In this document: piece by piece, positions 1,710-53,833 of the stretch
How the letters are laid out: each line of letters begins with the position of its first letter
Numbering within the stretch: the stretch's first letter is position 1
DNA from: a virus
Length of the DNA stretch: 64,000 nt
Virus record (IMG/VR): IMGVR_UViG_3300008261_003175
Direction: 5' to 3' (one strand)
Notes under the pieces: generated by a model
What the model was told of the DNA's origin: nothing
Databases searched by the model: none
What the model saw: only the letters and a program-made list of their open reading frames with translations
Translations under genes and position numbers: made by a program

Positions 1710-1710
1710 T

Positions 1711-3018: not shown

Positions 3019-3019
3019 T

Positions 3020-3262: not shown

Positions 3263-3704
3263 TAAAATAATAGATTGTCCTAATTGTAAAGAAAAAGCTT
3301 GCTGTTATCAAACTCCTATAAATGAATTTCATAATTCATACGCGTGTTTTGGATGCGGATTTACTACTAACGATCTAATGCAAGAATCCGAATTCAATTT
3401 TGAAGAATTTGAATCAACGTTACCAGAACTTTATAAAGATCTAAAAACTCTAGATTATGAAAATAGAGTATGGTATCCTCAGGCTATCAATATTTTGGAC
3501 AAAGGAACGGTTTTTGCAAATGGTAAATCTAAAGATAGTTGGCAATGGTCAGCTATCAAAACTGTAGAATTAACAGAAGAAGAAAAACAAAATCCTAAAT
3601 TTAAAGGGCAGCTTTATAAATCAGACTCTAAAAGTTTAGAAAATTTTGGAACAGATTTTATAGAAGCGTGTGATTACATTGGATTTTTTGATATAAAAAA
3701 ATAA
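3255..3704 (+). CDS. Hypothetical protein with N-terminal zinc ribbon
   Basis: CPNC...CC...CFGCGF. Confidence 0.6.
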   Translation: MIDKIIDCPNCKEKACCYQTPINEFHNSYACFGCGFTTNDLMQESEFNFEEFESTLPELYKDLKTLDYENRVWYPQAINILDKGTVFANGKSKDSWQWSAIKTVELTEEEKQNPKFKGQLYKSDSKSLENFGTDFIEACDYIGFFDIKK

Positions 3705-3707
3705 AAT

Positions 3708-4328
3708 ATGCCATCAATAAGTTACGCTATTCCGGTATGCAACGAACATAAAGAATTAGATAAATTACTTTCTTTATTGATTGAATATAAACGTACTCAA
3801 GATGAAATAGTGGTTCAATGCGATTTGGGAAACACCACTGGTGAAGTTTATCAAATTTTAGAAAAGCATAAAAATAATATAAAAATAATAGAATTTGCGT
3901 TAAAGGGAAACTTTGCTGCATTTAAAAATAATCTAAAAGCAAATTGTCTTGGAGCTTGGATATTTCAAATAGATGCAGATGAACTATTACACGAAGAATT
4001 TTTACAACACCTTCCACAAATTTTAAGAGACAATCCTGAAGTGCAACTTTTCTGTTTGCCTAGAATCAATACTGTAGAAGGATTGACTCAAGAGCACATA
4101 ATTAAATGGGGATGGAATGTAAACGAAAAAGGATGGGTGAACTTTCCTGATATACAAACTAGAATAATTCAAAACTCTCCAAAAATACAATGGGTAGGAA
4201 AAGTTCATGAGGTTATATACGGACATACTTCTCAAGCAGTTCTTCCTATACAAGAAGAATATTGTTTATTACACCATAAACATATACAACGCCAAGAAAT
4301 GCAAAATACATTATATTCAATGATATGA
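3708..4328 (+). CDS. Glycosyltransferase family 2
   Basis: ISYAIPVCNE, WIFQIDADE (DxD), VHE. Confidence 0.88.
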   Translation: MPSISYAIPVCNEHKELDKLLSLLIEYKRTQDEIVVQCDLGNTTGEVYQILEKHKNNIKIIEFALKGNFAAFKNNLKANCLGAWIFQIDADELLHEEFLQHLPQILRDNPEVQLFCLPRINTVEGLTQEHIIKWGWNVNEKGWVNFPDIQTRIIQNSPKIQWVGKVHEVIYGHTSQAVLPIQEEYCLLHHKHIQRQEMQNTLYSMI

Positions 4329-5299
4329 AAAAAGCTATAATAACTGGAATAAATGGACAGGATGGATCATATTTAGCAGAATATCTACTTGAATTAGGAT
4401 ACGAAGTTCACGGAATATTAAAAAGAAATTCTGTAGCAGAAAATCAAACAGCGCGACTAGACGAAATATTCAATAAATTAAATTTGCATTATGCAGATAT
4501 GACTGATATATCGTCTTTATACAGAGTGATAAATCAAGTTAAACCTCATGAGATATATAATTTAGCAGCTCAATCGCATGTAAGAATATCTTTTGATCAA
4601 CCTATATATACTGTAAATGCGACAGGGGTAAGTGTACTTAATTTATTAGAAGTAGTAAAAGAGGTGGATGCATCTATAAAAATATATCAAGCATCTTCTT
4701 CTGAAATGTTTGGTAATTCAATTGACGCTGACGGTTATCAGAGAGAAACTACCACAATGAATCCAGTATCTCCTTATGGTTGCGCTAAAGTGTTTGCTTA
4801 TAACATAAGCAGAAATTATAGACACTCATATAATATGTTCGTATCTAATGGAGTATTATTCAATCATGAATCTCCAAGAAGAGGCACTAATTTTGTCACA
4901 AATAAAGTTTGTAAAGAAGCAGTAAAAATAAAATTAGGTTTATCTAAAGAATTAAAATTGGGTAATCTAAGCGCAACTAGAGATTGGGGTCATGCAAAAG
5001 ATTATGTTAAAGCAATGCATCAGATTTTACAACTAGATAAACCAGATGACTTCGTATGCGCTACTGGAATATCTCATTCGGTGCAAGAACTTTGCGAATA
5101 CGTGTTTATGGCATTAGATTTAAATTGGAAAGATTACGTAAAACAAGATGAAAAATTTTTAAGACCAGAAGAATTAAATAATTTAAAAGGCGATGCGTCA
5201 AAATTAAAACAAATGACTGGTTGGGAACCGACATATACTTTTAAATCAATGCTATTAGAAATGATTAATTATTGGATAAAACATTATACAAATGAATAA
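4325..5299 (+). CDS. gmd: GDP-mannose 4,6-dehydratase
   Basis: ITGINGQDGSYLAE, NLAAQSHV, QASSSEMFG, SPYGCAK, LFNHESPRRG, RDWGHAKDY. Confidence 0.97.
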   Translation: MKKAIITGINGQDGSYLAEYLLELGYEVHGILKRNSVAENQTARLDEIFNKLNLHYADMTDISSLYRVINQVKPHEIYNLAAQSHVRISFDQPIYTVNATGVSVLNLLEVVKEVDASIKIYQASSSEMFGNSIDADGYQRETTTMNPVSPYGCAKVFAYNISRNYRHSYNMFVSNGVLFNHESPRRGTNFVTNKVCKEAVKIKLGLSKELKLGNLSATRDWGHAKDYVKAMHQILQLDKPDDFVCATGISHSVQELCEYVFMALDLNWKDYVKQDEKFLRPEELNNLKGDASKLKQMTGWEPTYTFKSMLLEMINYWIKHYTNE

Positions 5300-6197
5300 A
5301 ATAGTAATAACTGGAGGAACAGGATTAATAGGATCCGCCTTTAAAAAAGGAAAAAAGTTAGGATCTAAAGATTATGATCTGAGATCAACAGTAGAAACAA
5401 ATAAAATGTTTGAAGAAAATAATCCTGACGTGGTAATTCACACAGCCGCCAAAGTAGGAGGAGTCGGAGCAAATATGCAATATCCTGCTAATTTTTATTA
5501 CGATAATATAATGATGAATACAAACATTATTCAATCTTCATTCGAACATAGAGTAAAAAAATTAGTTTGCTTTTTATCGACATGCGTATTTCCTGATAAA
5601 ATAGAATATCCTCTTACTGAAGATAAAATTCATCAAGGAGAACCTCACCCAAGCAATGCATCTTATGCGTATGCGAAAAGAATGGCTGACATTCAAATTA
5701 AAGCTTATAATAAACAATATGAAACTAATTATTTTTCAGTTATTCCATGCAATGTTTACGGAATAAAGGACAATTTCAATTTACATAATGGTCACGTTAT
5801 CCCGACTTTGATTCACAAGTGTTGGTTAGCAAAACAAAATAATTCGCCTTTTGAAATTTGGGGAAATGGATCTGCTCTTAGAGAATTTGTTTTCGCAGAC
5901 GATATGGCAGATATAGTGTTGAAATTAGTAGAAACTTATGAAGGAACTGATCCAATAATAATATCCAATCCACAAGAGTATTCTATAAAAGAAGTAGTCG
6001 ACATAATTATTAAGCACATGGAATTTGAAGGAGAGGTTAAGTGGTTATTAGATAAACCTAATGGACAACATAGAAAACCATCGTCTAACGAAAGATTGAC
6101 AAATATAATCGGTCAATATAATTTTACTACTTTAGAAATAGGTTTAAAAAATACAATAGATTGGTTTAAATTAAATTACGAAACAATAAGAAAATAA
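5292..6197 (+). CDS. fcl: GDP-L-fucose synthase
   Basis: GGTGLIG, AAKVGG, LSTCVFP, YAYAKR, PCNVYG..DNF..HVIP, WGNG..REF. Confidence 0.95.
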   Translation: MNKIVITGGTGLIGSAFKKGKKLGSKDYDLRSTVETNKMFEENNPDVVIHTAAKVGGVGANMQYPANFYYDNIMMNTNIIQSSFEHRVKKLVCFLSTCVFPDKIEYPLTEDKIHQGEPHPSNASYAYAKRMADIQIKAYNKQYETNYFSVIPCNVYGIKDNFNLHNGHVIPTLIHKCWLAKQNNSPFEIWGNGSALREFVFADDMADIVLKLVETYEGTDPIIISNPQEYSIKEVVDIIIKHMEFEGEVKWLLDKPNGQHRKPSSNERLTNIIGQYNFTTLEIGLKNTIDWFKLNYETIRK

Positions 6198-6213
6198 AAA
6201 ATAAAGTTAAAAC

Positions 6214-7575
6214 ATGGATAGTAAAAAACAAGCTATTTTAGATTCTATATCTGAGTATATAAAAGAAAAGAAAAAAAATAAAACATGGAAACCTGGTGTG
6301 GATTGGATTCAATATTCAGGTCCTTATTTTAATGAGAAAGAATTTGTATACGGCGTAGATTCTCTCCTATCTGAATGGTTTATATTAGGTGAAAAAGGTA
6401 GAGAGTTCGAATTAAAATTCGCGCCTCTTCTAGGTAAAAAAGATGGTATAGTTGTTAATTCTGGAAGCTCTGCAAATTTATTAATGGTATCTCTTTTGAA
6501 AACAAAAAGATGGGGTAAAGTTCCAGAAGGTTCTAAATTTATTACTCCTGTCGTATGTTTTCCAACAACAATAAACCCACTAATTCAAAATGGCTATAAA
6601 CCAGTTTTCGTAGACGTTACACTACCAGATCTGAATCTAGACTTAGATCAAGTAGAAAAAGTTTTACAAGAGGACATTAATAAAGAAATTAAAGGCCTTA
6701 TATTTGCCCACGTATTAGGAAATCCTCCTGATATGGATAGAGTTATGGACATAGTAAAAAAATATAATTTAATTTATTTAGAAGATACGTGTGATGCGTT
6801 AGGCTCTACTTGGGATGGAAAACCTTTAGGATCTTTCGGCGATATTTCTACGTGTTCATTTTTCCCAGCTCATCATATGACAATGGGTGAAGGTGGTTTT
6901 GTTGCAGTTAATTCAGCTAAAAAAAGAATGGCATTAGCATCTTTGAGAGATTGGGGCAGAGCATGTTATTGCAATACCGCAAAACCTGGAAATGTAATGT
7001 GCGGTACAGCTTGTGGTTGTAGATTTGATTCTTGGTTCAAACAGCAATCAGATATTTCTTTTGATCACAGATACGTTTTTGAAGAGATAGGATATAATTT
7101 AAAACCTACAGAAATGCAAGCTGCAATTGGATTAGCGCAATTAGGCAAATTAGATGAGATGCATACAAGAAGAAAACACAATTTTAAAAGATTGTATGAG
7201 ATCTTTAGTAAATACCCCGATTATTTTTATTTGCCTACAGTTCATGAAAAAGCAGATCCATCTTGGTTTGGATATTTAGTCACTCTTAAAGATAATACTC
7301 CATTTACAAAAGCTGATTTAATAGATTATATGGAATCATGTAAAGTTCAAACAAGATCTTATTTTACAGGAAACGCTTTATTCCATCCAGCATATGAAGA
7401 TTTAGCTAAAGAATATGAAAATCCTAGAACTCAATTTCCAATTGCGACAAAAACGACGTTAGATACATTTTTTCTCGGAGTATATCCAGGAATTACAGAT
7501 CAACAATTAGATTATATAGAATTGTGTTTACATAATTTCATAAAAGAAAATAATAATGGGATACATAACATTTAA
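6214..7575 (+). CDS. rfbH: NDP-4-keto-6-deoxyhexose 3-dehydrase (E1, RfbH/DdhC family; PMP and 2Fe-2S)
   Basis: VNSGSSANLL, EDTCDALGS, SFFPAHHMTMGEGG (His replaces the PLP Lys), RDWGRACYC, GYNLKPTEMQAA. Confidence 0.93.
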   Translation: MDSKKQAILDSISEYIKEKKKNKTWKPGVDWIQYSGPYFNEKEFVYGVDSLLSEWFILGEKGREFELKFAPLLGKKDGIVVNSGSSANLLMVSLLKTKRWGKVPEGSKFITPVVCFPTTINPLIQNGYKPVFVDVTLPDLNLDLDQVEKVLQEDINKEIKGLIFAHVLGNPPDMDRVMDIVKKYNLIYLEDTCDALGSTWDGKPLGSFGDISTCSFFPAHHMTMGEGGFVAVNSAKKRMALASLRDWGRACYCNTAKPGNVMCGTACGCRFDSWFKQQSDISFDHRYVFEEIGYNLKPTEMQAAIGLAQLGKLDEMHTRRKHNFKRLYEIFSKYPDYFYLPTVHEKADPSWFGYLVTLKDNTPFTKADLIDYMESCKVQTRSYFTGNALFHPAYEDLAKEYENPRTQFPIATKTTLDTFFLGVYPGITDQQLDYIELCLHNFIKENNNGIHNI

Positions 7576-8386
7576 AAATCTAACAACATCAGCAGATTTA
7601 GGATCTCAAGTTATGCAGTATTGGGCATTATGCGCAGTAGCAAGTGCAAATAATTTAAAAATAGTATTTCCTAAATCATCATCAGATAAAGGTTGGGGAT
7701 ATAAATTTTCTAAACTATTAGATGTTGAATTAGATTTAAGATCTGATGAATTTTTCAATGATTTTATTCCAATAACAATTGATAGAAAATTATTAATTGA
7801 TCCAAAAATGTTTAATTTAGATTCTAATAAAAATTATAGCGTTGAAGATCTATTTTTTTATTGCGACTATTGGTATCCAAAATATTGTTATCTTATAGAT
7901 TCTATAAAATGGAATGAAAAGCATTATAAAACAGCATTAGATATTTTTGAAACGTTAAAAAAATATAATAAGGAATTGGTATCTATTCACGTTCGTCGTG
8001 GAGATTATTTATTACATCATCACTTTTGTAAATTAGATAACAGATACTACGAAGAAGCGCTTCAAAATTTTATTCAAGATATAGAAAAATATCATTTTTT
8101 AGTGTTTTCAAATGATATTGAATGGTGTAAAGAAAATCTTATAGAAGGAGAAATGGTCACATTCATGCCTCAGAGAGAAGATTACGTAGATTTAATATTA
8201 ATGAGTTTATGTCATCATAATATAGTGGCTAATAGTACTTTTAGTATGTGCGCGGCATATAAGAATAACAACAAAAATAAAAAAGTAATATGTCCTACTA
8301 ACTATGTTAAATCCTACAGTGATGTATCATTCATAAATGGTAAATATTATATAGATTCATGGAAAAATATAGATAATGAATGTTAA
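7556..8386 (+). CDS. Alpha-1,2-fucosyltransferase, GT11
   Basis: LGSQVMQY, VSIHVRRGDY, FSNDIEWC, DLILMSLCHHNIVANSTFS. Confidence 0.92.
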   Translation: MGYITFKNLTTSADLGSQVMQYWALCAVASANNLKIVFPKSSSDKGWGYKFSKLLDVELDLRSDEFFNDFIPITIDRKLLIDPKMFNLDSNKNYSVEDLFFYCDYWYPKYCYLIDSIKWNEKHYKTALDIFETLKKYNKELVSIHVRRGDYLLHHHFCKLDNRYYEEALQNFIQDIEKYHFLVFSNDIEWCKENLIEGEMVTFMPQREDYVDLILMSLCHHNIVANSTFSMCAAYKNNNKNKKVICPTNYVKSYSDVSFINGKYYIDSWKNIDNEC

Positions 8387-9371
8387 TAGAAAAATAGCAT
8401 TTCTAACTGAAATGGGCTTTACAGGAAAAATATCATGTAATCATCCAAATATGAGAACAGAATTTGCGTGGATGAACGCTCTTGACGCTGATCACTTTCC
8501 AATTTCTCTATTTCACGAAGTAAAAAATTATGATCATGTTTTTTTAATAATTCCAAAAGGCGAAGTTTATTTAAATGCAGTCGGAGGAAAGTTAATAAAT
8601 AAAATTAATCCTATAAGTCAATTATTAGAATCTAATTTTCATAGATTGTTAAAAGAACATAATTCAAAAGTGTATTTTGTACAAGAAGGTCCTCACTGGC
8701 TTTTTAATGATTACGAAATAGTAGATCAGATAAATTTCTACAATCTTATCAGTGAATGCGATTCAATATTTGCGCATAACCAACAAGATAGACTATATTA
8801 TATGGGAATGTTTCCAGATAAACCCATTCACATCATGCAGACTCTTATGATAGAAACTCTTATAAGAGATATAAAGCCTAATAAAACAGACCGGGTAATC
8901 ATTGGCGGCAATTTCTCTAGGTGGTATGGAGGATTTGAAAGTTATACCGTCGCTCAAGAATTTCAAGCGCCTATTTGGGCTCAAGATTCTCACTCAAAAA
9001 GAGAATATGAAGATCAACTAGAAAATATAAATCATTTTCCAAGAATGATGTGGAACCAATGGATGCAAGAGCTATCAAAATTTAAATATGCAGTGCATTT
9101 AATGCCAACGGTGGCTGCAGGAACATTCAGTTTAAATTGTGCTTATTTTGGAATACCATGCATAGGAAACGTAAACGTAGATACACAGTCTGCGTGTCAT
9201 CCTCTACTTTCTGTAGATGTAGAAGATATTCACTCAGCTAGAAATTTAGCAAAGAGACTAAAAGAAGATAAAGAATTTTATGAACGTTGTAGTAGAATAA
9301 GTAGAGAAAGTTACAAATCACACTACCATAAAGATAATTGGTTAAAATATATGAATAAAGTATTAAATTGA
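8376..9371 (+). CDS. Putative glycosyltransferase (GT-B-like)
   Basis: Context; C-terminal AGTFSLNCAYFGIPCIG resembles the GT-B donor-binding segment. Confidence 0.55.
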   Translation: MNVNRKIAFLTEMGFTGKISCNHPNMRTEFAWMNALDADHFPISLFHEVKNYDHVFLIIPKGEVYLNAVGGKLINKINPISQLLESNFHRLLKEHNSKVYFVQEGPHWLFNDYEIVDQINFYNLISECDSIFAHNQQDRLYYMGMFPDKPIHIMQTLMIETLIRDIKPNKTDRVIIGGNFSRWYGGFESYTVAQEFQAPIWAQDSHSKREYEDQLENINHFPRMMWNQWMQELSKFKYAVHLMPTVAAGTFSLNCAYFGIPCIGNVNVDTQSACHPLLSVDVEDIHSARNLAKRLKEDKEFYERCSRISRESYKSHYHKDNWLKYMNKVLN

Positions 9372-9375
9372 TTTA

Positions 9376-10104
9376 ATGGAAAATAAAAAAGTGTTAGTAT
9401 TAACAGGAGGCGATAATAATTTACATGAAGTATTAGATCTAACTGTGCCTTCTAAATTGAGATACGCTAGAAAATATGGTTATGATTTTATGTGTTTAAA
9501 TTCATTTAAAAAATATCCGGAATATAATATCAATAATGATAATATAGGTTTATCATTTTCTAGAACCATATACATGTTTAGAATGTTAGCACATTATAAT
9601 ATTATTATGTGGTTAGATGCTGATTCTATAGTGACAAATTATAATTATCCCATAGAGTCTTTTATAACAAATGATCATTCATTATATTTTTCTTATGATT
9701 GGCCGGTATCTTCAAATGGAGATTCTGGACATGAAGGATTTAGTGGAGGAAATTTTATAGTACAATTAACTCATAATAGCGCTGAGATATTTGATAAGTT
9801 TGTTTATTCAGCTCAAACTTATTTGAATGATTCAGGAGCTGATCAAGCGTGTTTTAACTATCTATATAAAGCTACTCATTTGAAATCGTATATTAAGATA
9901 CTAGAACATAAATATTTAAATGCAGTACCAGAATTTATAAAAAATACTGAGATTTGGAAAAATGATCCTAATAGAGTTGGCCCAAATAGTTCATTTAAAA
10001 TAACATCTCCTTGGAATGAAAATTGTTTTATAGCGCATTTAACAGGTTGTTCAAATAGTGATAGAGTAAACTTATTAAATAACGAATTGAAAAAATATTT
10101 GTGA
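9376..10104 (+). CDS. GT-A nucleotide-diphospho-sugar transferase (GT34/MNN10-like)
   Basis: KLRYARKYGYDF, WLDADS (DxD), FSGGNF, DQACFN, FIAHLTG. Confidence 0.8.
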   Translation: MENKKVLVLTGGDNNLHEVLDLTVPSKLRYARKYGYDFMCLNSFKKYPEYNINNDNIGLSFSRTIYMFRMLAHYNIIMWLDADSIVTNYNYPIESFITNDHSLYFSYDWPVSSNGDSGHEGFSGGNFIVQLTHNSAEIFDKFVYSAQTYLNDSGADQACFNYLYKATHLKSYIKILEHKYLNAVPEFIKNTEIWKNDPNRVGPNSSFKITSPWNENCFIAHLTGCSNSDRVNLLNNELKKYL

Positions 10105-10106
10105 TA

Positions 10107-11750
10107 ATGAAGAAAAATAAATTTAAAATAATAATACCTTCATATAATAATGAAGATTGGGTCGAATATAATTTAGCCAGTATAATAAATCAAACGTACG
10201 ATAATTACGAAGTATTATATGTTGACGATTGTTCTACTGATAATACTAACGAATTAGTACACTCTATTGTAGGAACCAACAATAAATTTACGATTATTAG
10301 AAATGAAAAAAGAAAAGGAAAAGAACATTTCTATAACTATGTAAGATTTTTTGATTCTTTAGAAGATGATGAGATTGCAGTATTTGCATGCGGAGACGAT
10401 TGGCTTATGAATGATAGCGTTTTAGAGAATTTAAACAATTTCTACAACGAAAAAAATTCTTGGATGACATACGGACAATTTTATGTTTTTGATGGGTCTG
10501 ATAATGCAATAAAAGCCAATCCACAAAACACTCCATATCCAGATTTTATTCACGAATATAAATTATATAGAAGAGACGTTTGGAGAGCGAGTCATATGCT
10601 GACATTAAAAGGATTTTTAGTAAAAGCGATTGATCAAAAAGATTTTATATCAAGTATAGATAACATGTATTTTCATCATGCTTGCGATTTATCTCTAGCA
10701 TATCCGTGCTTAGAAATGTGTCCAAAAGAAAAGATTGGAGTTGTAGATTTTCCTACTTACGTATGGAACAATAGTAAATCTTGTAGACAAAGAACAGATG
10801 AAAGGGAATCATCAGATAATCAAAAATACGAATTAGAAATAAGAAATAAAAAACACTATAAGGAAGGACTTTCAGGAGAAAAGTTACCCCAAATAAACGC
10901 TATTGGAGGAGGTAGAGAGAATAATAGCATGCCAAAAAAATTCTCGTATGTACAAGATTTGCAAGACGGAGAATTTGATTTATCTTTAATATGCGATACA
11001 GATATTATAAGATATATAAATGGAGATATTATTATTAATAGAGGAAAGATAGTTGCAGACGTGCACGAACCAGCACACTTACATAATCAAAAACTAGTTC
11101 ATCAAGCATTAATTCATCATTATGAAAAATTTGATGCAATATTGACTTATGATGAAGAGTTATTAAAATTACCAAATTCTATTTTTAGAAATGGGGGCGG
11201 TGAAGTTCTATTGACTAAACAAAATTATTCACAAGGCTATCCTGTATATGTAAATGAAAGTTTATTTTCTATATATGAAAAAAATAAATTAGTATCATTC
11301 ATAACCTCTAATAAAACATTTACTGATTGGCATAGATTTAGAACAGAGTGTGTAAATTATCTTTTAAAAAATAATCAGAAGTTTGATTTATATGGAGTAG
11401 GATACAATGAAATAAATCAAAAAATTTTAGGATTAAAAGATTATTATTTTTCCATTGCAATAGAAAATGGAAATCAAAAAAATTATTTTACGGAAAAAAT
11501 ACTAGATTGTTTTTTAACTGGAACGATACCGATATATAAAGGTTGTCCTAACATAGATGATTTTTTTGATAAGAATGGGATAATCACATTTAACGATAAA
11601 GAAGAATTATTAGAAATATTAGATAATTTAACTCCTGAAATCTACCAATCAAAATTAGATAGTATAAAAAATAACTATGAAACTGCTTTAAAATGGAGGT
11701 GGGATAATGATATATATTTCGATAAATTTTTAAAAAATATAATAAAATAA
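10107..11750 (+). CDS. Bifunctional GT2 + GT10-like (alpha-1,3-fucosyltransferase-like) glycosyltransferase
   Basis: IIIPSYN..VDDCSTD..GDDWL; C-terminal YYFSIAIENG..YFTEKILDCFLTGTIPIYKG; GTG at 10101 is an alternative start. Confidence 0.85.
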   Translation: MKKNKFKIIIPSYNNEDWVEYNLASIINQTYDNYEVLYVDDCSTDNTNELVHSIVGTNNKFTIIRNEKRKGKEHFYNYVRFFDSLEDDEIAVFACGDDWLMNDSVLENLNNFYNEKNSWMTYGQFYVFDGSDNAIKANPQNTPYPDFIHEYKLYRRDVWRASHMLTLKGFLVKAIDQKDFISSIDNMYFHHACDLSLAYPCLEMCPKEKIGVVDFPTYVWNNSKSCRQRTDERESSDNQKYELEIRNKKHYKEGLSGEKLPQINAIGGGRENNSMPKKFSYVQDLQDGEFDLSLICDTDIIRYINGDIIINRGKIVADVHEPAHLHNQKLVHQALIHHYEKFDAILTYDEELLKLPNSIFRNGGGEVLLTKQNYSQGYPVYVNESLFSIYEKNKLVSFITSNKTFTDWHRFRTECVNYLLKNNQKFDLYGVGYNEINQKILGLKDYYFSIAIENGNQKNYFTEKILDCFLTGTIPIYKGCPNIDDFFDKNGIITFNDKEELLEILDNLTPEIYQSKLDSIKNNYETALKWRWDNDIYFDKFLKNIIK

Positions 11751-11752
11751 AT

Positions 11753-12400
11753 ATGACTTTAGGAGCTGCTCTATATGATGCTTTTGGAAAAACATATATT
11801 CTTAATTTGAAAAAGAGTTTAGATAGGAAATTATCTATGGAAAAAAAATGTTCTTTAATTAATTTAAATTATCAATTTTTTGAAGCATTTGATGGAGATA
11901 ATTTTTTATTCCCTTTTTATACGAAAGGAGGATATATGAATCACAATCAATTAGGCGAGATAACAACGTCTAGGTATTATGCAGCTCAATACGCATTAAA
12001 TTATATAATTCATAGAGCAATTAACAATAATATTAAAAGTTTTATTTTTATGAACGATGATGTTTATTTCGATAACTATCATAGTTTCACTGATCAAAAT
12101 TTCCTAGATATAAAAAACAAAATACCTGAAGATTGGGATATTATAGTATTAGGCAGCATGTTTCAAACATATCCTTATACAGGAGATGTAGATTATACGC
12201 CAAATTTATTACATACTCCAGGATGTCACGCATGTGCAATAAATCATACTGTCTATCATGACATCATAGCTCAATCAGCTCCAATAACAAATGTAGTAGG
12301 AGATCATTTAAATGATCATTTAAGAAGTCTAGGTAAAAAAATATATAGTGTCTATCCAGATATTTGTCTTCAAGATAGATCATTCGTAACAACGTGCTAA
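11753..12400 (+). CDS. Glycosyltransferase family 25-like
   Basis: YILNLKKSLDRK..FFEAFDG, MNDDVYF, DWDIIVLG. Confidence 0.78.
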   Translation: MTLGAALYDAFGKTYILNLKKSLDRKLSMEKKCSLINLNYQFFEAFDGDNFLFPFYTKGGYMNHNQLGEITTSRYYAAQYALNYIIHRAINNNIKSFIFMNDDVYFDNYHSFTDQNFLDIKNKIPEDWDIIVLGSMFQTYPYTGDVDYTPNLLHTPGCHACAINHTVYHDIIAQSAPITNVVGDHLNDHLRSLGKKIYSVYPDICLQDRSFVTTC

Positions 12401-12425
12401 TTTAAAAACCAATAAAATTAACTTA

Positions 12426-13394
12426 ATGAAAAAAATAGTATATGTAACTGGATGCCTTGGATTTATCGGATCTTATGTAACAAGAGCGTGTTTAAATAAA
12501 GGCTGGTATGTAAAAGGTGTAGATATGATGACATACGCATCTAATAAAGATCTTTTAAAAGAGTTTAAAAAATATGATAACTTTTCTTTTGTTCATTGTG
12601 ATATAAATGATTTGACATTTTTATATGATTGTGATTATATAATTAATACTGCAGCTGAAACTCATGTTGGAAATTCTATAATGAGCAGTGAAGAATTTGT
12701 ACATTCAAATGTAAATGGAGTTCACAATATTTTAGAACTAATAAAAAATCATAGAGGAGAAAATTCTACAAAGCCAGTATTAATACATTTTAGTACAGAT
12801 GAAGTATATGGAGATATTGAATCTGGAGCTCATACAGAAGATCATTTATTAAAACCAAGTAATCCATATTCAGCAACTAAAGCAGCTGCAGATATGCTTG
12901 TAATGGCTTGGGGTAGAACTCATAAACTTCCATATATGATTGTAAGACCAACTAACAATTACGGTATAGGTCAATATGTAGAAAAACTAATTCCAAAAGC
13001 TATTAAATATTTAAATTTAGGTCGTAAAATACCTTTACATAATAATGGAGAACCATATAGAAATTGGTTGCATGCTTCTGATACAGCTGATGCTGTTATT
13101 ACTTTAATAGAACATGGAATAGTAGGAGAAATCTATAACATAGCTGGAGGATTTGAACAAAAAAATATTGATACTGTTAAACGTATAATTGAAGAATTTA
13201 CAGAAATTAAAAATTGGGAAAATCTTTCAGATTGTAATGATTTTATAGATTTTTCTTATGATAGACTTGGTCAAGATGTAAGATACGCATTAGATGATTC
13301 AAAATTAAGAAATTTAGGTTGGACACCAAAAATAAATTTTTCAAAAGAAATAAAAAATATTGTAGATTACTATAAGAAAAAGTTTATATGGTAA
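12426..13394 (+). CDS. rfbB: dTDP/NDP-glucose 4,6-dehydratase (RfbB/RmlB-like)
   Basis: TGCLGFIGS, AAETHV, STDEVYGD, PSNPYSATKAAAD, TNNYG, EKLIP, RNWLH. Confidence 0.9.
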   Translation: MKKIVYVTGCLGFIGSYVTRACLNKGWYVKGVDMMTYASNKDLLKEFKKYDNFSFVHCDINDLTFLYDCDYIINTAAETHVGNSIMSSEEFVHSNVNGVHNILELIKNHRGENSTKPVLIHFSTDEVYGDIESGAHTEDHLLKPSNPYSATKAAADMLVMAWGRTHKLPYMIVRPTNNYGIGQYVEKLIPKAIKYLNLGRKIPLHNNGEPYRNWLHASDTADAVITLIEHGIVGEIYNIAGGFEQKNIDTVKRIIEEFTEIKNWENLSDCNDFIDFSYDRLGQDVRYALDDSKLRNLGWTPKINFSKEIKNIVDYYKKKFIW

Positions 13395-15169
13395 AAGTAA
13401 GTGATATTATAGCAGACTATTTAAAAGAAAAAAATATAGAGACTGTATTTGGAATTATCGGATCTGCAAATTCTCATATATTTGACTCAATTAATAAATT
13501 AGGCTATACTAAGATAATTAATACTCATCATGAACAAGCTGCAGTCATGGCTATGGGTGCTCACTATAGAGCATCAGGTAAATTATCAGCAGCAATTGTA
13601 ACAGCTGGTGGAGGAGTTACAAATGCAGTTACTGGCATAGTTAGCAATTGGGCTGATTCTATCCCAGGTTTAATTATTTGTGGACAAGAATCTTATAATT
13701 ATGTAACTCAAGATAGTCATTTAAGAATGTATGGAACTCAAGGTTTAAACATTTCAGAAATGGTAAAAGATGTTACAAAAAAAGCCTTAGGTTTTACTAA
13801 TCAAGATGATATTCAAGAAGTGCTAGAGGATTTAGACTTTATTACTTCTACAGGACGACCTGGACCGTGTTTATTAGATGTTCCATTTAATTTACAATCA
13901 AAAATGGTAGAAAAAAGAGATTGGGCATTTCATTTAGCTGATTTTAAGTTTAAGTCTTTAAATACTGAATCGATATCACAGGCTATCAAAGAATCAAAAC
14001 GTCCAGTAATTTTAGGAGGAAACGGAATTAGATTATCTGGGGCTAAAAATAAATTTAATGAATTTATTAATAAAAATAAAATACCTACCCTATTAACATG
14101 GTCAGGAATAGACTTGATAGAATCAGATAATGAAAATTTCTATGGAAGATTTGGATTATATGGACAACGATGCGCAAATTTTATAGTGCAAAATGCTGAT
14201 CTTGTAATTGTGTTAGGTAGTAGATTAGCTTTACCTCAAGTTGGATACGATTTTAGTCAATTTGCTAGAGACGCAAAGATAATTCAAATAGATATTGATG
14301 AACTTGAATTAGCAAAATATCCAACGCATATGAGAATTCAAGCTAATTGTAAACATGTTATAGAAAGCTTAAACGAATGCGATCTAGACAGCTATAGAGA
14401 AGATTGGGTAGCTTATTGTAATAAACTAAGACAAGATTATCCTTGGGTAGAAAAAGCTCATAAAGATAACGGATATTTAAACTCATATAAATTCATAGAT
14501 AGACTATCTAATCACTTAAAAGATGATCATATTATTGTTACAGATATGGGTACAGCGCTATTAAGCGGACATCAATCTATAAAATTAAAGAAAGATCAAG
14601 TGATGTTTACGTCATTAGGTTTAGGAGAGATGGGATATGGTATTGCTGGTGCAATTGGCGCACAATTTGCGTGTCCGAATAAACCAGTACTTTGCTTAAA
14701 TTGTGATGGTGGAATAATGATGAATCTTCAAGAACTTCATACAGTAATAGAGAATGAGCTACCTATAAAAGTAGTTATATTCAATAATGATGGATACCTA
14801 ATGATTAAACACACTCAAAAAATGTTGTTTAAAAATCATTACGTAAGTGTGAATAAAAAAACAGGAATTGGATTACCAAATTTTAGTAAACTTATGCCCG
14901 CATTCGGATATAATTATTATGAATTAAAAGACTGGCAAAATTTTGATTCTACTATAGAAAATTTTTTAAATGATAAAGATGCATCTGTATTAGAAGTATT
15001 CATGGATCCTGAACAAGATTTTATTCCAAAAGTAAAAGGAGTTTTAAAGGAAGATTTAACTATATTTCCTCCTCCAATTGAAGAAATGTCTCCATTACTT
15101 CCTTTAACGGAAATTGAAAATAGCATGATAATACAATTAAGTGAAAAATCTAAACAAATAAAAAGATGA
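13388..15169 (+). CDS. ThDP-dependent carboligase (YerE/acetolactate synthase-like), sugar-branching enzyme
   Basis: HHEQAAVMAMG, GRPGPCLLDVP, GLGEMGYG, CDGGIMMNLQEL..FNNDGY (ThDP motif); inside NDP-sugar cluster. Confidence 0.88.
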   Translation: MVKVSDIIADYLKEKNIETVFGIIGSANSHIFDSINKLGYTKIINTHHEQAAVMAMGAHYRASGKLSAAIVTAGGGVTNAVTGIVSNWADSIPGLIICGQESYNYVTQDSHLRMYGTQGLNISEMVKDVTKKALGFTNQDDIQEVLEDLDFITSTGRPGPCLLDVPFNLQSKMVEKRDWAFHLADFKFKSLNTESISQAIKESKRPVILGGNGIRLSGAKNKFNEFINKNKIPTLLTWSGIDLIESDNENFYGRFGLYGQRCANFIVQNADLVIVLGSRLALPQVGYDFSQFARDAKIIQIDIDELELAKYPTHMRIQANCKHVIESLNECDLDSYREDWVAYCNKLRQDYPWVEKAHKDNGYLNSYKFIDRLSNHLKDDHIIVTDMGTALLSGHQSIKLKKDQVMFTSLGLGEMGYGIAGAIGAQFACPNKPVLCLNCDGGIMMNLQELHTVIENELPIKVVIFNNDGYLMIKHTQKMLFKNHYVSVNKKTGIGLPNFSKLMPAFGYNYYELKDWQNFDSTIENFLNDKDASVLEVFMDPEQDFIPKVKGVLKEDLTIFPPPIEEMSPLLPLTEIENSMIIQLSEKSKQIKR

Positions 15170-16023
15170 TAAAAGCAGGAATTTTAGGAACGGGAAACAT
15201 AGGCACTGATCTTCTATTAAAAATAATCAAAACAGATTTCATTAAACCTGTAATTTTCGCTGGTCGAAGATTAGATTCTGATGGAATAAAAATAGCTCAA
15301 TCAAAAAATATCCCAATCACTGATCAAGGTATAAAATATTTCATAGATAATCCAAATTGTTGTGATGTTGTTTATGATTGTACTAGCGCAGCTGATGCAC
15401 GGGATCATGCTAAAGTATTCAAAAAACAAGGAATCAAAGTTATTGATTTAACTCCGTCTAAAATAGGCGATATGTGTGTGCCAGATGTCAATTCAGAAAT
15501 AATAATTACTGATGATAATATAAATATGATAACTTGTGGTGGACAAGCTTCTATGCCAATGTTACATTTAATTTCAAAAGAATGTAAAGGAATAGAATAC
15601 GTAGAAGTAGTATCTCAAATTGCGTCTAAAAGCGCAGGAATGGCAACGAGAATTAACATAGATAATTATATATACACTACTCAAAAAGCAATAACTAAAT
15701 TCACGGGTTGTACTAATTGTAAAGTAATTCTCAATCTTAATCCAGCAGAACCTTGTGTAGATATGCAAACTACTATTTTTATTAAAACTAAAAATATTAA
15801 CTTTGAAAATCTAACAGAGAAAGTTCTTGATAAAATAGAAGAATTGAAACAATATATCCCATATTATGAATTAGTATTACCTCCAACAATGAATGAAAAT
15901 GGCGTAGTTGTATTGAGTATTAGAGTGAAAGGAATAGGTGACTACCTTCCTTCATACGCAGGTAATCTAGATATAATAAATTGTGCCGCAATTAAAATAA
16001 CTGAAAAATTAATACAAAAATAA
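15166..16023 (+). CDS. mhpF: Acetaldehyde dehydrogenase (acylating), DmpF/MhpF
   Basis: GTGNIGTDL, IDLTP, NMITCGGQA, SKSAG..TRINID, GDYLPSYAGNLDII. Confidence 0.95.
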   Translation: MIKAGILGTGNIGTDLLLKIIKTDFIKPVIFAGRRLDSDGIKIAQSKNIPITDQGIKYFIDNPNCCDVVYDCTSAADARDHAKVFKKQGIKVIDLTPSKIGDMCVPDVNSEIIITDDNINMITCGGQASMPMLHLISKECKGIEYVEVVSQIASKSAGMATRINIDNYIYTTQKAITKFTGCTNCKVILNLNPAEPCVDMQTTIFIKTKNINFENLTEKVLDKIEELKQYIPYYELVLPPTMNENGVVVLSIRVKGIGDYLPSYAGNLDIINCAAIKITEKLIQK

Positions 16024-17018
16024 TGAAAAAAATTATTATAACTGATTCAAGTCTTAGAGACGGAAATCATAGCGTTAAACACACTATAAATTTAGATAGC
16101 ATTGCAAAATATTGTCAATTCGCAGATCGAGCAGGAATACCGATTGTAGAAGTTGGACATGGAAATGGATTAGCTGCATCTTCACTATTAGTAGGTAAAT
16201 CTATTAATACTGATGATGAAATATTGACTGTTGCAAGAAAAAATTTAAAATCTTCTAAATTAGGAATTCATATGATTCCAGGTTTAGCAACTTTAGATCA
16301 CGCAAAAAAAGCAATAGAGTTAGGTGTAGACGTTTTTAGAGTTGCGACTCACTGCACTGAAGCTACATTATCAAAATCGCATATAGAGTATTTAGCTACT
16401 CAGAATATAATAGTTTATGGTGTGTTAATGATGAGTGCGTTAATTACTGCAGACGAATTAGTCGAACAGGCAAAGATCATGGAAAGTTATGGAGCGCAAG
16501 GCATTATTATAATGGATTCGACAGGAACTTATTTACCATCAGACGTGAAAGAAAGAATTACAAAATTAAAATCTAATTTAAAAGTTCCAATAGGTTTTCA
16601 TGCTCATAATAATTTAGGTTGTGCTATCGCAAATTCATTAGTCGCTGCAGAATGCGGCGCTGATTTAATTGATGGTTGTATTAGAGGTTTTGGAGCAGGC
16701 GCAGGAAATGCAGCTTTAGAAGTTTTAATACCAGTATTTGAACAAAGCGGATTTGATTTAGGAATAAATTTTCAAGAAACAATTAAAGAAGCGGATAAAG
16801 TTATGGAATACTTAGTTCCATCCGCGCCTATAACCACTCCAATTAATATACTGACTGGTCTTAAAAAATTATTTTCTGGATTTGAAAAACCTATTGTTAA
16901 TGCTTCAAAATTATATGGTATTGAATATTCATCTTTAATTTTCGAATTAGGAAATAGAAAATTAGTAGCAGGTCAAGAAGATTTAATTTTAGAAGTAGCT
17001 CAAAAATTGAAAAAATGA
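16023..17018 (+). CDS. mhpE: 4-hydroxy-2-oxovalerate aldolase, DmpG/MhpE
   Basis: DSSLRDGNH, EVGHGNGL, RVATHCTEA, GFHAHNNLG, GFGAGAGN, LVAGQEDLI. Confidence 0.95.
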   Translation: MKKIIITDSSLRDGNHSVKHTINLDSIAKYCQFADRAGIPIVEVGHGNGLAASSLLVGKSINTDDEILTVARKNLKSSKLGIHMIPGLATLDHAKKAIELGVDVFRVATHCTEATLSKSHIEYLATQNIIVYGVLMMSALITADELVEQAKIMESYGAQGIIIMDSTGTYLPSDVKERITKLKSNLKVPIGFHAHNNLGCAIANSLVAAECGADLIDGCIRGFGAGAGNAALEVLIPVFEQSGFDLGINFQETIKEADKVMEYLVPSAPITTPINILTGLKKLFSGFEKPIVNASKLYGIEYSSLIFELGNRKLVAGQEDLILEVAQKLKK

Positions 17019-17929
17019 AAATTTTAATTACAGGTGCAAATGGTTTTTTAGGTTCTAATACTATAAAACATTTATTAAAACTAAATCATAAAATACTAGC
17101 ATTTTCAAAAAATTCAAATAATATCATCCAATTATTGAATGATATTAAATTTATAAAATGCGATACAGAAAATTATGTTCCTTATGAATCTATAATTGTA
17201 GACTTTTCTCCTGACATAGTAATTAATTTTGCTTGGGATGGTGGAAATAATTATCAAGACGTAAATAATTTTAATCAATTTTATAAAAATATTCCATTAA
17301 GTTTAAGTTTATTAGAAATAATTAATAAACAAAATAATAAACCTAAATTTATAGGTCTAGGTAGTTTTGCAGAATATGGAAACCTTGAATTTAAAGCAGA
17401 TGAAGATCAACAAGAGAAACCGATAAATTTTTATGGTTTATCAAAAAAACAAGTTAAGGAAATCACTGAGGCTTATTGCATTCAAAATAATATTAAATAT
17501 AATTGGATAAGACCGTGTTATGTGTATGGTCCAGGAGATGTATCTACAAGATTAATTCCAACTATAATCAATAAAGCACTATCAAATGAAGAGATCATAT
17601 TAAATAGTTGCGAAACTATTATAGATTATATCTATATAGATGACTTTTGTCAAGCGGTAACAGAGTTAGTTCAATCATCTACACAGAATGGGGCATATAA
17701 TATATGTTCATCTAATGAATATGTTTTAAAAAATGTAATAAAAGAAATTCAAAAAAATATTTCTAATGATGTGAAAATAAGTTTTGATAAAAGTTTAGAT
17801 CGAAAATTTTCATCAAAATACATATGCGGTTCCAATTCAAAAATAAAAATAGAAACAAATTGGACGCCAAAAATTAAAATTGAAGATGGAATAAAAAATA
17901 CTGTAAATTACTATAAAACAAAAATATAA
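17015..17929 (+). CDS. Extended SDR NDP-sugar ketoreductase/epimerase (YerF/RfbJ-like)
   Basis: GANGFLG, INFAW, GSFAEYG, YGLSK (YxxxK), RPCYVYGPG. Confidence 0.85.
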   Translation: MKILITGANGFLGSNTIKHLLKLNHKILAFSKNSNNIIQLLNDIKFIKCDTENYVPYESIIVDFSPDIVINFAWDGGNNYQDVNNFNQFYKNIPLSLSLLEIINKQNNKPKFIGLGSFAEYGNLEFKADEDQQEKPINFYGLSKKQVKEITEAYCIQNNIKYNWIRPCYVYGPGDVSTRLIPTIINKALSNEEIILNSCETIIDYIYIDDFCQAVTELVQSSTQNGAYNICSSNEYVLKNVIKEIQKNISNDVKISFDKSLDRKFSSKYICGSNSKIKIETNWTPKIKIEDGIKNTVNYYKTKI

Positions 17930-17930
17930 A

Positions 17931-18575
17931 ATGGAATCATTGACAACAATAAAAGATAATAAGTGGATTTGGCCAATAAATGATGAAAGTAGTTGGCGAG
18001 GGCAAAATGAATATCAAGATTTACATACGCACATATTGCCATATGTAAAAACAAAAAATGTTATGATACAAGCCGGCGGAAATTGCGGATTTGTGTTAAG
18101 TAAATTTGTAGATCATTTCAAAACTGTTTATACATTTGAACCAGATCCAATTAACTTCTATTGCTTAAATCAAAATGTTACTCAAAATAATGTAATAAAA
18201 ATGCAATGTTGTTTAGGTTCAGATAATAATCCAGTAAAAATTCAACAATTAATTAGACCTGATAAATTACACGATACAGGAGGAGTTCATATTGCAGGAA
18301 CCGGATATACACCATCTATAACTATAGATAGTTTAAATTTACCTGAATGCGATCTTATTCAATTGGATGTAGAAGGATTTGAATTAAATGCGTTAATAGG
18401 TGGTTTAAAAACAATAGAAAAATTCAAACCTATTTTATGTATTGAATTTTGTGAAAAGTGGTTAAATAGGTATGATAGTAGTTCTGAAAAAATGGAAAAT
18501 CTTCTTAACGACTTAGAATATGAATATAAAGAAACATGCGGAGTAGATAGAATATATGCGCACAAAAATAATTAA
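17931..18575 (+). CDS. FkbM-family methyltransferase
   Basis: IQAGGNCG, FEPDP, LIQLDVEGFE..ALIG..PILCIE. Confidence 0.9.
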   Translation: MESLTTIKDNKWIWPINDESSWRGQNEYQDLHTHILPYVKTKNVMIQAGGNCGFVLSKFVDHFKTVYTFEPDPINFYCLNQNVTQNNVIKMQCCLGSDNNPVKIQQLIRPDKLHDTGGVHIAGTGYTPSITIDSLNLPECDLIQLDVEGFELNALIGGLKTIEKFKPILCIEFCEKWLNRYDSSSEKMENLLNDLEYEYKETCGVDRIYAHKNN

Positions 18576-19844
18576 ATGATAACGTTTGCTACAAATACAT
18601 CTAATAATACTTTAGAATATACTAAAATTCTTTTGCAATCTCTTAAAGAGAATCTAGACAATAAAGAACATGAGATTTTAGTTTTTATAGATTCTGATAA
18701 CGATGGCACATTAGAATATCTAAGGTCAATAAAATCAGATTTCTATGATCTTAAAATAATAACTCATAAACTTTCCCCTATAATTGGACCAGAAAGAAAC
18801 TGCAATCTTATTGTTGATTTAGCAAAATACGATATCGTTAGTTATTTGCAGAGTGATATGGTAGTATCTAAACATTATGATACTGAAATTCTAAAAAATT
18901 TAGAAACCAATACTATAATGAGTTCTACTAGAATAGAACCTCCATTGCATAGCAATTCAGATATAACATTTACTGCTAATTTTGGATTATCACCGAATGA
19001 ATTTAAATTTGATGAATTTGTTAAATACGCTGAAACAATTAAATCAAATAAGCAAATAGATTATTTCTTTGCGCCATATACTTTTCATAAAGAAACATGG
19101 AATAAAATGGGAGGATACGATACAGTATTTAGAAGATCTAGATGCGATTCTGATTTAGTTCAGAGATGCAAACATTTAGGAATACAGTTAAAGCAAACAT
19201 ACTCTGCAAATGTATATCATTTCACATGCGTATCTTCAAGAGGAAAAAATTGGTTTGACCAATCTAATCAAGAAGCTCAAGATAGAGTAAAATTACAAAA
19301 CTATGCAGATCAAATTGAGTTGAGAAGATTTTTTAAAAAGTGGGGAAATTTTAATCACGGAGAAAATTTAATAAAAAAGTATGATTGTGATTTAGTGATA
19401 AAAGGATCCAAGAATCAGGTAAATGTTGCTTATCAATTAGAACCGTTTTTTACAAGAGTTTTTGTAGAATTAGAGGATCACAAGAATCAATTGATTCAAG
19501 CCCATGATGATCAACATCAACCAGCAAATGAACTATATAATTTTACAGAGCAAAATTGGAAAGAATCTAGTCAGTATTATAATCAAATAGACTATTCTCA
19601 AATTTATTTTGTAGGAGAACCTGAAAATTATAACGCAAAAATAATATTGGATTTGGATAGCAATGAATATAACATGTTAACTCAAGAAACGCTACTAAAT
19701 CTCTCTCACTTGATAGAGCAAACAGAGCCTGGGGATTATCAATCAGGAAATTGCATAATATCGATAAGAGAAGCGAAAGACATTACTCCTCCATTCAAAG
19801 TAGAAAATCCGCCTTTCGATATGAGTTTATTAACTATAGAATAA
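18576..19844 (+). CDS. Glycosyltransferase family 2 with C-terminal extension
   Basis: VFIDSDNDGT, YLQSDM, GGYDTVF..DSDL..YHF. Confidence 0.85.
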   Translation: MITFATNTSNNTLEYTKILLQSLKENLDNKEHEILVFIDSDNDGTLEYLRSIKSDFYDLKIITHKLSPIIGPERNCNLIVDLAKYDIVSYLQSDMVVSKHYDTEILKNLETNTIMSSTRIEPPLHSNSDITFTANFGLSPNEFKFDEFVKYAETIKSNKQIDYFFAPYTFHKETWNKMGGYDTVFRRSRCDSDLVQRCKHLGIQLKQTYSANVYHFTCVSSRGKNWFDQSNQEAQDRVKLQNYADQIELRRFFKKWGNFNHGENLIKKYDCDLVIKGSKNQVNVAYQLEPFFTRVFVELEDHKNQLIQAHDDQHQPANELYNFTEQNWKESSQYYNQIDYSQIYFVGEPENYNAKIILDLDSNEYNMLTQETLLNLSHLIEQTEPGDYQSGNCIISIREAKDITPPFKVENPPFDMSLLTIE

Positions 19845-53327: not shown

Positions 53328-53387
53328 CAAGCAGCTTCTAGGCCAGGGGAACGAAAACTCAGGAACACCTCTCAGAAAGTTGTAAAT

Positions 53388-53510: not shown

Positions 53511-53593
53511 CAATATACTATCCGCTTTAAGCATCCGACAGTAACATCGGACTGAGGAATGTAGATGGTAAGGGGTAAGGAAAAGACCAAAAT

Positions 53594-53828: not shown

Positions 53829-53833
53829 CAATA

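Follow-up and report, generated by a model that had tools for sequence, protein, structure and literature searches.

We analysed a stretch of 64,000 nucleotides of viral DNA (IMG/VR record IMGVR_UViG_3300008261_003175; the whole stretch is called the window below), which carries a glycan island of about 20 kb at positions 267-19844. Five genes of the island (12426-17929), assigned like all others here with Pfam and NCBIfam models, encode an RmlB-like 4,6-dehydratase, a thiamine diphosphate (ThDP) carboligase, the acylating acetaldehyde dehydrogenase DmpF, the pyruvate aldolase DmpG and a short-chain dehydrogenase/reductase (SDR). They are translationally coupled. An earlier inspection of the letters alone (the sequence-only reading) had placed them on the plus strand with overlapping stop and start codons, and the overlaps amount to 7 nt between the 4,6-dehydratase and ThDP genes, 4 nt (ATGA) between ThDP and DmpF, 1 nt between DmpF and DmpG, and 4 nt between DmpG and SDR; a gene of the FkbM family follows the SDR gene after a gap of 1 nt. 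Phage operons often show such overlaps, which are nothing special alone; the non-random part is the combination of genes, because it recurs in many viral and bacterial loci. We consider it likely that the island is a phage route to an erwiniose-type sugar, a 4-C-(1,3-dihydroxybutyl)-3,6-dideoxyhexose, beside a guanosine diphosphate (GDP)-fucose route and nine soluble glycosyltransferases. The genes assigned to the branched sugar, with NDP standing for any nucleoside diphosphate, are:

6214-7575, plus strand: E1/RfbH-type NDP-4-keto-6-deoxyhexose 3-dehydrase, dependent on pyridoxamine phosphate (PMP) and a [2Fe-2S] cluster (NF011936)
12426-13394, plus strand: RmlB-like NDP-glucose 4,6-dehydratase (best model TIGR01181)
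13388-15169, plus strand: JanthE/YerE-like ThDP carboligase (PF02776, PF00205 and PF02775, three thiamine pyrophosphate domains; 8rph)
15166-16023, plus strand: DmpF/ErwJ-type acylating acetaldehyde dehydrogenase (TIGR03215)
16023-17018, plus strand: DmpG/ErwI-type class II pyruvate aldolase, His83/Phe284 variant (TIGR03217; DmpG_comm, PF07836)
17015-17929, plus strand: extended SDR, candidate side-chain ketone reductase (ErwF/YerF analogue; PF01370, 138 bits)
17931-18575, plus strand: FkbM-family methyltransferase, candidate O-methylase of the sugar (PF05050/TIGR01444)

The chemistry is not new, because the bacterial erwiniose pathway of Pectobacterium atrosepticum SCRI1043 has the same mechanism: there the acetaldehyde dehydrogenase ErwJ, the BphI-like aldolase ErwI, the ThDP enzyme ErwE and the reductase ErwF act on cytidine diphosphate (CDP)-4-keto-3,6-dideoxyglucose, and ErwE takes (R)-4-hydroxy-2-oxopentanoate and rejects pyruvate (Steitz 2022, PMC9306805). 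The mechanism proposed from the letters, in which DmpF and DmpG run in reverse and the ThDP enzyme transfers a C4 acyl unit, matches this published ErwJ/ErwI/ErwE/ErwF scheme. The window shares with the erw genes the four neighbouring enzyme types, their link to an E1-type 3-dehydrase and, we would suggest, the same logic. It differs in being virus-encoded, in its gene order (dehydratase-ThDP-DmpF-DmpG-SDR rather than E-F-J-I), in having an RmlB-like dehydratase for RfbG, in having neither RfbF nor E3, and in the attached FkbM gene.

The proposed route would begin with the RmlB-like enzyme (12426), which would oxidise and dehydrate NDP-glucose of the host, after which E1 (6214) would remove the 3-hydroxyl group with electrons supplied, as for SpnQ, by a ferredoxin or flavodoxin system of the host. 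DmpF (15166) would convert acetyl-CoA to acetaldehyde, which DmpG (16023) would join to pyruvate to give (4R)-4-hydroxy-2-oxopentanoate; the ThDP enzyme (13388) would decarboxylate this acid and add the C4 acyl unit to the C4 ketone of the sugar, and the decarboxylation would pull the reversed DmpFG steps forward. The SDR (17015) would then reduce the side-chain ketone, the FkbM protein (17931) may O-methylate the product, and a glycosyltransferase would put the sugar on an acceptor. We infer the substrates, the direction of the reactions, the nucleotide carrier, the roles of the SDR and FkbM proteins and the acceptor from sequence.

The gene combination was followed through IMG/VR with the ThDP enzyme as query, which gave 107 relatives at 48-73% identity, 80 loci being kept for their neighbourhoods; bacterial genomes gave 187 ThDP relatives, of which the best 80 loci were analysed. 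By tblastn, DmpF and DmpG stand beside the ThDP gene in about 90% of the 80 viral loci, and the ThDP enzyme occurs with DmpF/DmpG in about 70 of the 80 bacterial ones, which come from Bacteroidota, Pseudomonadota, Verrucomicrobiota and other phyla. Altogether the combination recurs in about 100 viral loci, in two layouts. The phage-type layout runs RmlB-like dehydratase, ThDP, DmpF, DmpG, with or without SDR and FkbM, and its dehydratase is 61-81% identical to that of the window and usually lies directly upstream of the ThDP gene. The second runs DmpF, ThDP, FkbM and then DmpG on the opposite strand, and includes contigs labelled as metagenome-assembled genomes (MAGs) of giant viruses. Four large phage-type contigs (136-183 kb, three of them 99-100% complete by CheckV) all encode the T4 capsid protein Gp23, and several capsid paralogues of nucleocytoplasmic large DNA viruses (NCLDV) are encoded on each of four contigs with the second layout. 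Where phage-type loci have an FkbM gene, it comes after the SDR gene; in most loci of giant-virus type it adjoins the ThDP gene. Among deposited phage genomes there was no match at the DNA level, and the protein search gave only acetohydroxyacid synthase (AHAS) genes at 30% identity or less, mostly host-like.

The bacterial cassettes sit in O-antigen-type clusters with RfbF-RfbG-RfbH and Wzx or ABC exporters. For instance, the locus of a Flavobacteriaceae MAG carries a PglK-like ABC transporter, RfbF, RfbG, RfbH, ThDP, DmpF and DmpG, and that of Pseudomonas MYb60 (L187) carries E3, RfbF, RfbG, RfbH, a PpYerE orthologue, a JanthE-like enzyme, SDR, DmpF, DmpG and Wzx, so that its gene order is the E-F-J-I of the published erw genes. 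The two ThDP carboligases of this Pseudomonas cluster (L187:4539-15292 in NZ_PCOZ01000004.1) stand in tandem, the PpYerE orthologue (893 bits to 5ahk) before the JanthE-like enzyme with its CDG motif, and the cluster may make two branched sugars or one that is doubly elaborated. Two IMG/VR loci are outliers: one (L105) has RfbF, an E1 of 38% identity and a GDG-type ThDP enzyme, a bacterial-style CDP route, and in the other (L104) the ThDP enzyme that comes after DmpF/DmpG has just 30% identity.

The ThDP enzyme had been called YerE-like rather than an AHAS, and the scores bear this out in the form of a JanthE-type enzyme. It matches JanthE of Janthinobacterium sp. HH01 (8rph) over the full length with 555.6 bits, against 241.7 for PpYerE (5ahk) and 236 for E. 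coli AHAS I, and lies below every AHAS equivalog cutoff (at best 347.9 bits against 738; for TIGR00118, 333.9 against 538). Its ThDP-binding motif reads CDG (C439-D440-G441) where the canonical form is GDG, and CDG, present in 139 of 158 distinct clade members, bacterial and viral, is the rule within the clade. JanthE and the window enzyme have in common this motif and the residues at the Y297 and K567 hotspot positions; JanthE differs in being promiscuous and bacterial, and the window enzyme lies in a separate, virus-dominated sister clade. In the yersiniose A pathway of Y. pseudotuberculosis, which involves YerE and YerF, YerE takes pyruvate and adds a C2 branch. What it shares with the route proposed here is that a ThDP enzyme transfers an acyl unit to C4 of an NDP-4-keto-3,6-dideoxyhexose formed with the help of E1; the branch is different, and by the scores just given the window enzyme stands about equally far from PpYerE and from AHAS.

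The phylogeny that had been suggested as a check was built with FastTree on 158 rows and with IQ-TREE in quick mode on 43 rows, with the Pseudomonas orthologue of PpYerE, the Pseudomonas JanthE-like enzyme and E. coli IlvB and IlvI as references, and was rooted on IlvB, IlvI and the PpYerE orthologue. In both trees the CDG-type enzymes fall into two clades, one bacterial (support 99) and one dominated by viruses (support 96); the latter holds the phage-type and giant-virus-type enzymes together with that of the window, and in both trees the window enzyme falls outside the AHAS branch, with which PpYerE groups. The window enzyme itself groups with L001, L028 and L047 (support 97-99). Three MAG contigs (L106, L114 and L128) lie inside the viral clade, and one of these, the Flavobacteriaceae locus L106, is a true RfbFGH cluster, a sign that genes have been exchanged with Bacteroidota.

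The same results bear on whether these are auxiliary metabolic genes, that is, an acetolactate synthase for amino acids or enzymes for the catabolism of aromatic compounds or aldehydes. Such genes have been read in this way: the best NCBIfam matches of the ThDP enzyme are AHAS models, the KEGG-style label of the aldolase is 4-hydroxy-2-oxovalerate aldolase, the acetolactate synthase, acetaldehyde dehydrogenase and oxovalerate aldolase of the prasinovirus MpV-1 were assigned to amino-acid and aldehyde metabolism (PMC5371798), and the aldolase appears among the amino-acid auxiliary metabolic genes of a 2026 virome paper (PMC13303688). Against this stand the ThDP scores and trees and the company of the genes, whose neighbours are a sugar dehydratase, a sugar-type SDR and glycosyltransferases, with no hydratase, dioxygenase or hydrolase as partner. 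The claim that the window has no ring-cleavage genes held in a tblastn search with E. coli MhpA-D, which found no homologue in the window or in 185 loci; the FAA_hydrolase family is likewise absent from four related phage genomes (G001-G004), taken as proxies for the remainder of the window's genome. We therefore rejected the AHAS, amino-acid and aromatic-catabolism explanation, to which we give very little credence.

Both members of the DmpF/DmpG pair were expected to be intact enzymes lacking catabolic partners, and both are. DmpF scores 316.4 bits against TIGR03215 (cutoff 282) and keeps the catalytic cysteine in ITCGGQ; DmpG scores 333.8 bits against TIGR03217 (cutoff 286), has the communication domain PF07836 and keeps R12, D13 and H16 together with the metal ligands H193 and H195. 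With DmpFG, BphIJ and MhpEF the pair thus shares the fold, the catalytic residues, the communication domain, the partner dehydrogenase and scores above the equivalog cutoffs. It differs from them in the absence of meta-cleavage neighbours in the window, in its presumed biosynthetic direction, and in two residues of the aldolase, mapped through R17, H21 and Y291 of DmpG: His83 occupies the site of Leu87 of BphI and Phe284 that of Tyr290, the determinants of (4S) specificity. This His/Phe pair is found in all 71 bacterial homologues and in 44 of 64 viral ones, the other viral aldolases having His/Met or His/His, except for one with Phe/Phe; the catabolic E. coli MhpE and 8ih7 have Leu/Tyr at the same sites. 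BphI is strictly (4S), its Y290F variant loses stereocontrol, and the L87N/Y290F variant is (4R)-specific (PMC3962088). A natural pair with a polar residue at 87 and Phe at 290 would fit the (R)-acid consumed by ErwE, and the signature is consistent with a biosynthetic aldolase subfamily, the connection to (4R) being drawn from the residues.

A different donor would change the product. The ThDP enzyme might add a C2 unit from pyruvate, giving a yersiniose-type sugar, or a unit from another 2-oxoacid, while DmpFG, for example, removed or supplied acetaldehyde. JanthE accepts 4-hydroxy-2-oxovalerate and also pyruvate and several other 2-oxoacids (PMC12188165), and one viral subclade (L015, L016, L019, L024 and L027) has the ThDP gene without DmpFG. 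Yet here the ThDP gene is translationally coupled to DmpF and DmpG, which also lie near it in most bacterial and viral loci of the clade, the active-site signature of the aldolase is clade-wide and unlike that of catabolic enzymes, and ErwE, with the same gene arrangement, rejects pyruvate (PMC9306805); we regard another donor as improbable for the window. In the subclade just named the ThDP gene is accompanied by a ColD-like dehydratase, with no DmpF or DmpG within 10 kb, and these enzymes may use another donor, for which pyruvate is a candidate.

The early steps of the erwiniose-type route concern the two dehydratases and the nucleotide carrier. The 12426 dehydratase scores 306.7 bits against TIGR01181, the dTDP (deoxythymidine diphosphate)-glucose type (under its cutoff of 365), and 75 against the CDP type, TIGR02622. 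Its best solved match is the dTDP-glucose dehydratase 2hun (229 bits), its top solved matches are all dTDP-glucose dehydratases (229-148 bits), and mimivirus R141 gives 160 bits. We take the carrier to be most likely dTDP, possibly uridine diphosphate (UDP), judging from these similarities. The E1-type assignment, which had been based on SFFPAHH and RDWGRACYC, stands, with both motifs present. The enzyme scores 446.6 bits against NF011936 (cutoff 423) and matches Yersinia E1 (3bcx) over the full length with 329.9 bits, compared with 171 for ColD. In SFFPAHH, H220 aligns with His220 of 3bcx, which is the lysine of the H220K mutant 3bb8, and replaces the aminotransferase lysine. Of the four cysteines for the [2Fe-2S] cluster, C193, C251 and C253 keep the same numbering, the latter two supplied by RDWGRACYC, and C267 aligns to C261 after an insert of six residues.

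RfbF, RfbG and E3 had been reported missing from the window, and tblastn with Pseudomonas and Flavobacteriaceae queries found no homologue of any of the three there. A similar picture emerges from the relatives: RfbF occurs in one of 105 viral loci against 60 of 80 bacterial ones, E3 in 21 of 80 bacterial loci against one weak viral match, and true CDP-type RfbG only in bacterial loci, the viral ones having the RmlB-like dehydratase instead. NAD_binding_1 and Fer2 are absent from the related phage genomes G001-G004, and NTP_transferase from three of them (G001-G003), with a single weak match in G004; three CheckV-complete related genomes lack E3 and ferredoxin, and two of the three also lack a nucleotidyltransferase. 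From these absences it appears that the host supplies both the NDP-glucose and the electrons that E1 needs. There is precedent in SpnQ, the dTDP-4-keto-2,6-dideoxyglucose 3-dehydrase of spinosyn formation, a dTDP-linked Fe-S 3-dehydrase that works with general ferredoxin or flavodoxin reductases and no dedicated E3 (PMC8987622). Like the window enzyme it is PMP-dependent, has an Fe-S cluster and acts downstream of a dTDP-glucose-type dehydratase; it differs in belonging to actinomycete secondary metabolism and in its 2,6-dideoxy substrate. The match in G004 (G004:C1:136149-136748, on the contig of L057) scores 34.7 bits, just over the Pfam cut-off, lies in a frame of 602 residues about 1.2 kb upstream of the cassette dehydratase gene, and is the sole nucleotidyltransferase-like signal in G001-G004.

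Viral cassettes differ in the kind of DegT-family neighbour they have. At least 21 of the 80 loci have the Fe-S E1 type (Cys-His-Cys-Cys-Cys) and at least 36, including those of giant-virus type, a ColD-like protein with the histidine and no cluster cysteines, so that a 3-dehydratase of one type or the other, present in at least 56 of the 80, is the rule. E1 lies directly next to the RmlB-like dehydratase in L025, L054, L072 and L198-L200. In L193 (IMGVR_UViG_3300047557_002560), whose island is closely related to that of the window (E1 81% and GDP-mannose 4,6-dehydratase 76% identical), the RmlB-like dehydratase and E1 are kept and ThDP-DmpFG is missing, and L198-L200 have the dehydratase-E1 pair alone; to judge by these gene sets, some phages may make plain 3,6-dideoxyhexoses.

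The rest of the island consists of glycosyltransferases (GT, with family number), the GDP-fucose genes and one conserved protein:

267-1709 and 1711-3018, plus strand: two GT1-family glycosyltransferases at the start of the island (PF00534; no transmembrane segment)
3708-4328, plus strand: GT2 glycosyltransferase (PF00535; 48-70% conserved in the relatives L191-L194)
4325-5299, plus strand: GDP-mannose 4,6-dehydratase, GMD (TIGR01472 397 bits, cutoff 415; PF16363 384 bits)
5292-6197, plus strand: GDP-L-fucose synthase, Fcl, nearer the eukaryotic type (by similarity to solved enzymes)
7556-8386, plus strand: GT11 (fucosyltransferase-family) glycosyltransferase (PF01531, 84 bits)
8376-9371, plus strand: conserved island protein with no Pfam or NCBIfam match (60-64% identity in the relatives L191-L194)
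9376-10104, plus strand: GT34-like glycosyltransferase (Pfam; no transmembrane segment)
10101-11750, plus strand: fused GT2+GT10 glycosyltransferase (Pfam; no transmembrane segment)
11753-12400, plus strand: GT25 glycosyltransferase (Pfam; no transmembrane segment)
18576-19844, plus strand: GT2 glycosyltransferase at the end of the island (PF00535)

This arrangement allows E1 to be placed in the GDP branch, where GMD, E1 and the Fcl-like enzyme would make a colitose-type GDP-3,6-dideoxyhexose, the ThDP enzyme then branching a 4-keto-6-deoxy sugar with its 3-hydroxyl kept, or where a GDP-4-keto-3,6-dideoxymannose would be the acceptor of the acyl unit. The gene order in the window is GMD-Fcl-E1-GT11, E1 stands beside GMD/Fcl in nine related loci as against five where its neighbour is the dehydratase or the ThDP gene, and several of those nine show no Fcl; this adjacency keeps a GDP-linked role of E1 alive. 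It is opposed by the type of the enzyme, which is Fe-S E1/RfbH (330 bits) and not ColD (171 bits), the only characterised GDP-specific 3-dehydratase, ColD, being without the cluster (PMC8987622). In addition, at least eight loci have E1 and no GMD within 10 kb of it, E1 forms the RmlB-like dehydratase-E1 pairs described above (L198-L200, L025, L054 and L072), and Fcl matches GDP-fucose synthase well (268 bits to the human enzyme 4e5y against 173 to that of E. coli), in an island with two fucosyltransferase families. On balance a GDP-linked E1 seems unlikely to us, if less so than another donor.

Several of our own findings weigh against the erwiniose-type route. The window E1 adjoins GMD/Fcl and not the cassette, as do its counterparts in those nine loci, so that it is comparison with other loci that ties it to the cassette. 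The dehydratase score is below the dTDP equivalog cutoff and makes dTDP no more than the likelier carrier. Since JanthE is promiscuous and also takes pyruvate, it is gene linkage alone that points to the C4 donor, and CDG has been described as unique to JanthE (PMC12188165), which hints that ErwE may sit in another lineage. Finally, the SDR reaches at most 82 bits to any solved structure and, though of the same Pfam family, is only 20% identical (E = 0.048) to the ErwF-position SDR of the Pseudomonas locus L187, to which it is not orthologous. The reductase proposed in the sequence-only reading therefore stood in part: an SDR does follow DmpG, and from this position it is a candidate analogue of ErwF/YerF for reducing the side-chain ketone, and nothing closer than an analogue.

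As the window has no structural phage gene, and as three MAG contigs (L106, L114 and L128) lie in the viral ThDP clade, the DNA might be a bacterial O-antigen island and not phage at all. The window does contain a phage-type ThyA, an endonuclease, GP88, DUF932 and three tRNAs, and its called open reading frames of at least 150 codons are all on one strand. Moreover, the CheckV-complete genome G001 (L194, 183 kb) has the island in the window's order, GT2, GMD, Fcl, E1, GT11 and so on to dehydratase, ThDP and DmpF, and it is one of the four cassette contigs with Gp23. The island also lacks Wzx, Wzy, an exporter and RfbF, unlike the bacterial clusters. A bacterial origin was rejected on the phage-type window genes, the Gp23-bearing relatives and the missing exporter, Wzx and RfbF, and we hold it to be most improbable; the phage identity of the window would appear from its genes outside the island and from its relatives.

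What the virus might do with the sugar is suggested by the make-up of the island, where all open reading frames of at least 150 codons are on the plus strand and a Kyte-Doolittle hydropathy scan found no membrane-spanning segment in any of the 21 proteins. Because the island enzymes are all soluble and include no flippase, polymerase or lipid-carrier transferase, the glycan could be built directly on protein. A possible, though doubtful, extension of the erwiniose-type route is a self-contained glycosylation system of the virus, in which a glycan of fucose and the erwiniose-type sugar would be built in the cytoplasm on phage proteins (capsid, fibres or injected proteins), as giant viruses do, from host dTDP- or UDP-glucose by a virus-specific, E3-independent route, with the cassette exchanged between T4-like phages and algal giant viruses.

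Acyl-branched decoses have been regarded as rare decorations on a few lipopolysaccharides of bacteria. The virus analysed here has the complete set of genes, and the uncultured viral contigs that carry the cassette span T4-like phages and algal giant viruses. The genes of MpV-1, judged by their published names (PMC5371798), are apparently the same cassette; the giant-virus contigs in IMG/VR carry DmpF-ThDP-FkbM-DmpG, with enzymes sister to those of phages, and differ from the phage type in gene order and in having a ColD-like 3-dehydratase (histidine, no Fe-S cysteines) instead of E1. That the pathway was undescribed in a virus holds, in the literature searched, for the reading, and needs qualifying for its parts, since component genes had been reported in the prasinovirus and the mechanism was published in 2022. 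A 2025 review calls viruses unexplored for ErwE-type enzymes, and the literature searched gave no published link between these enzymes and phages. The new part would be a virus-specific version, widespread in phages and giant viruses, that relies on the host for electrons and for the sugar from which it starts.

If this is true, the 'acetolactate synthase' and 'oxovalerate aldolase' genes of viromes and prasinoviruses would have to be re-read as genes of sugar biosynthesis, and the viral route would be a distinct, simplified one, with an RmlB-like dehydratase and no nucleotidyltransferase or E3. The aldolase would be a natural His/Phe counterpart of the engineered (4R)-selective BphI, and both it and the viral route could be useful for biocatalysis. 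It would also raise the question of whether a lytic phage decorates the surface of its host or its own virion, which bears on adsorption, superinfection exclusion and the recognition of particles.

The G+C content of the island is 27-33%, against 33-45% in the remaining window, and the segment at 42-52 kb, which contains a gene for a GMP-reductase- or IMPDH-like protein (42052-43134), has 43-45%, so that the genome is compositionally mosaic. At 40219-41388 the window encodes the ThyA, which at 389 residues is longer than the PHROG profile and may carry an insertion. Genes for tRNA-Met, tRNA-Gln and tRNA-Glu lie at 53254-53906, and at 55086-55910 there is a 274-residue protein that resembles class II aminoacyl-tRNA synthetases and is perhaps AsnA-like.

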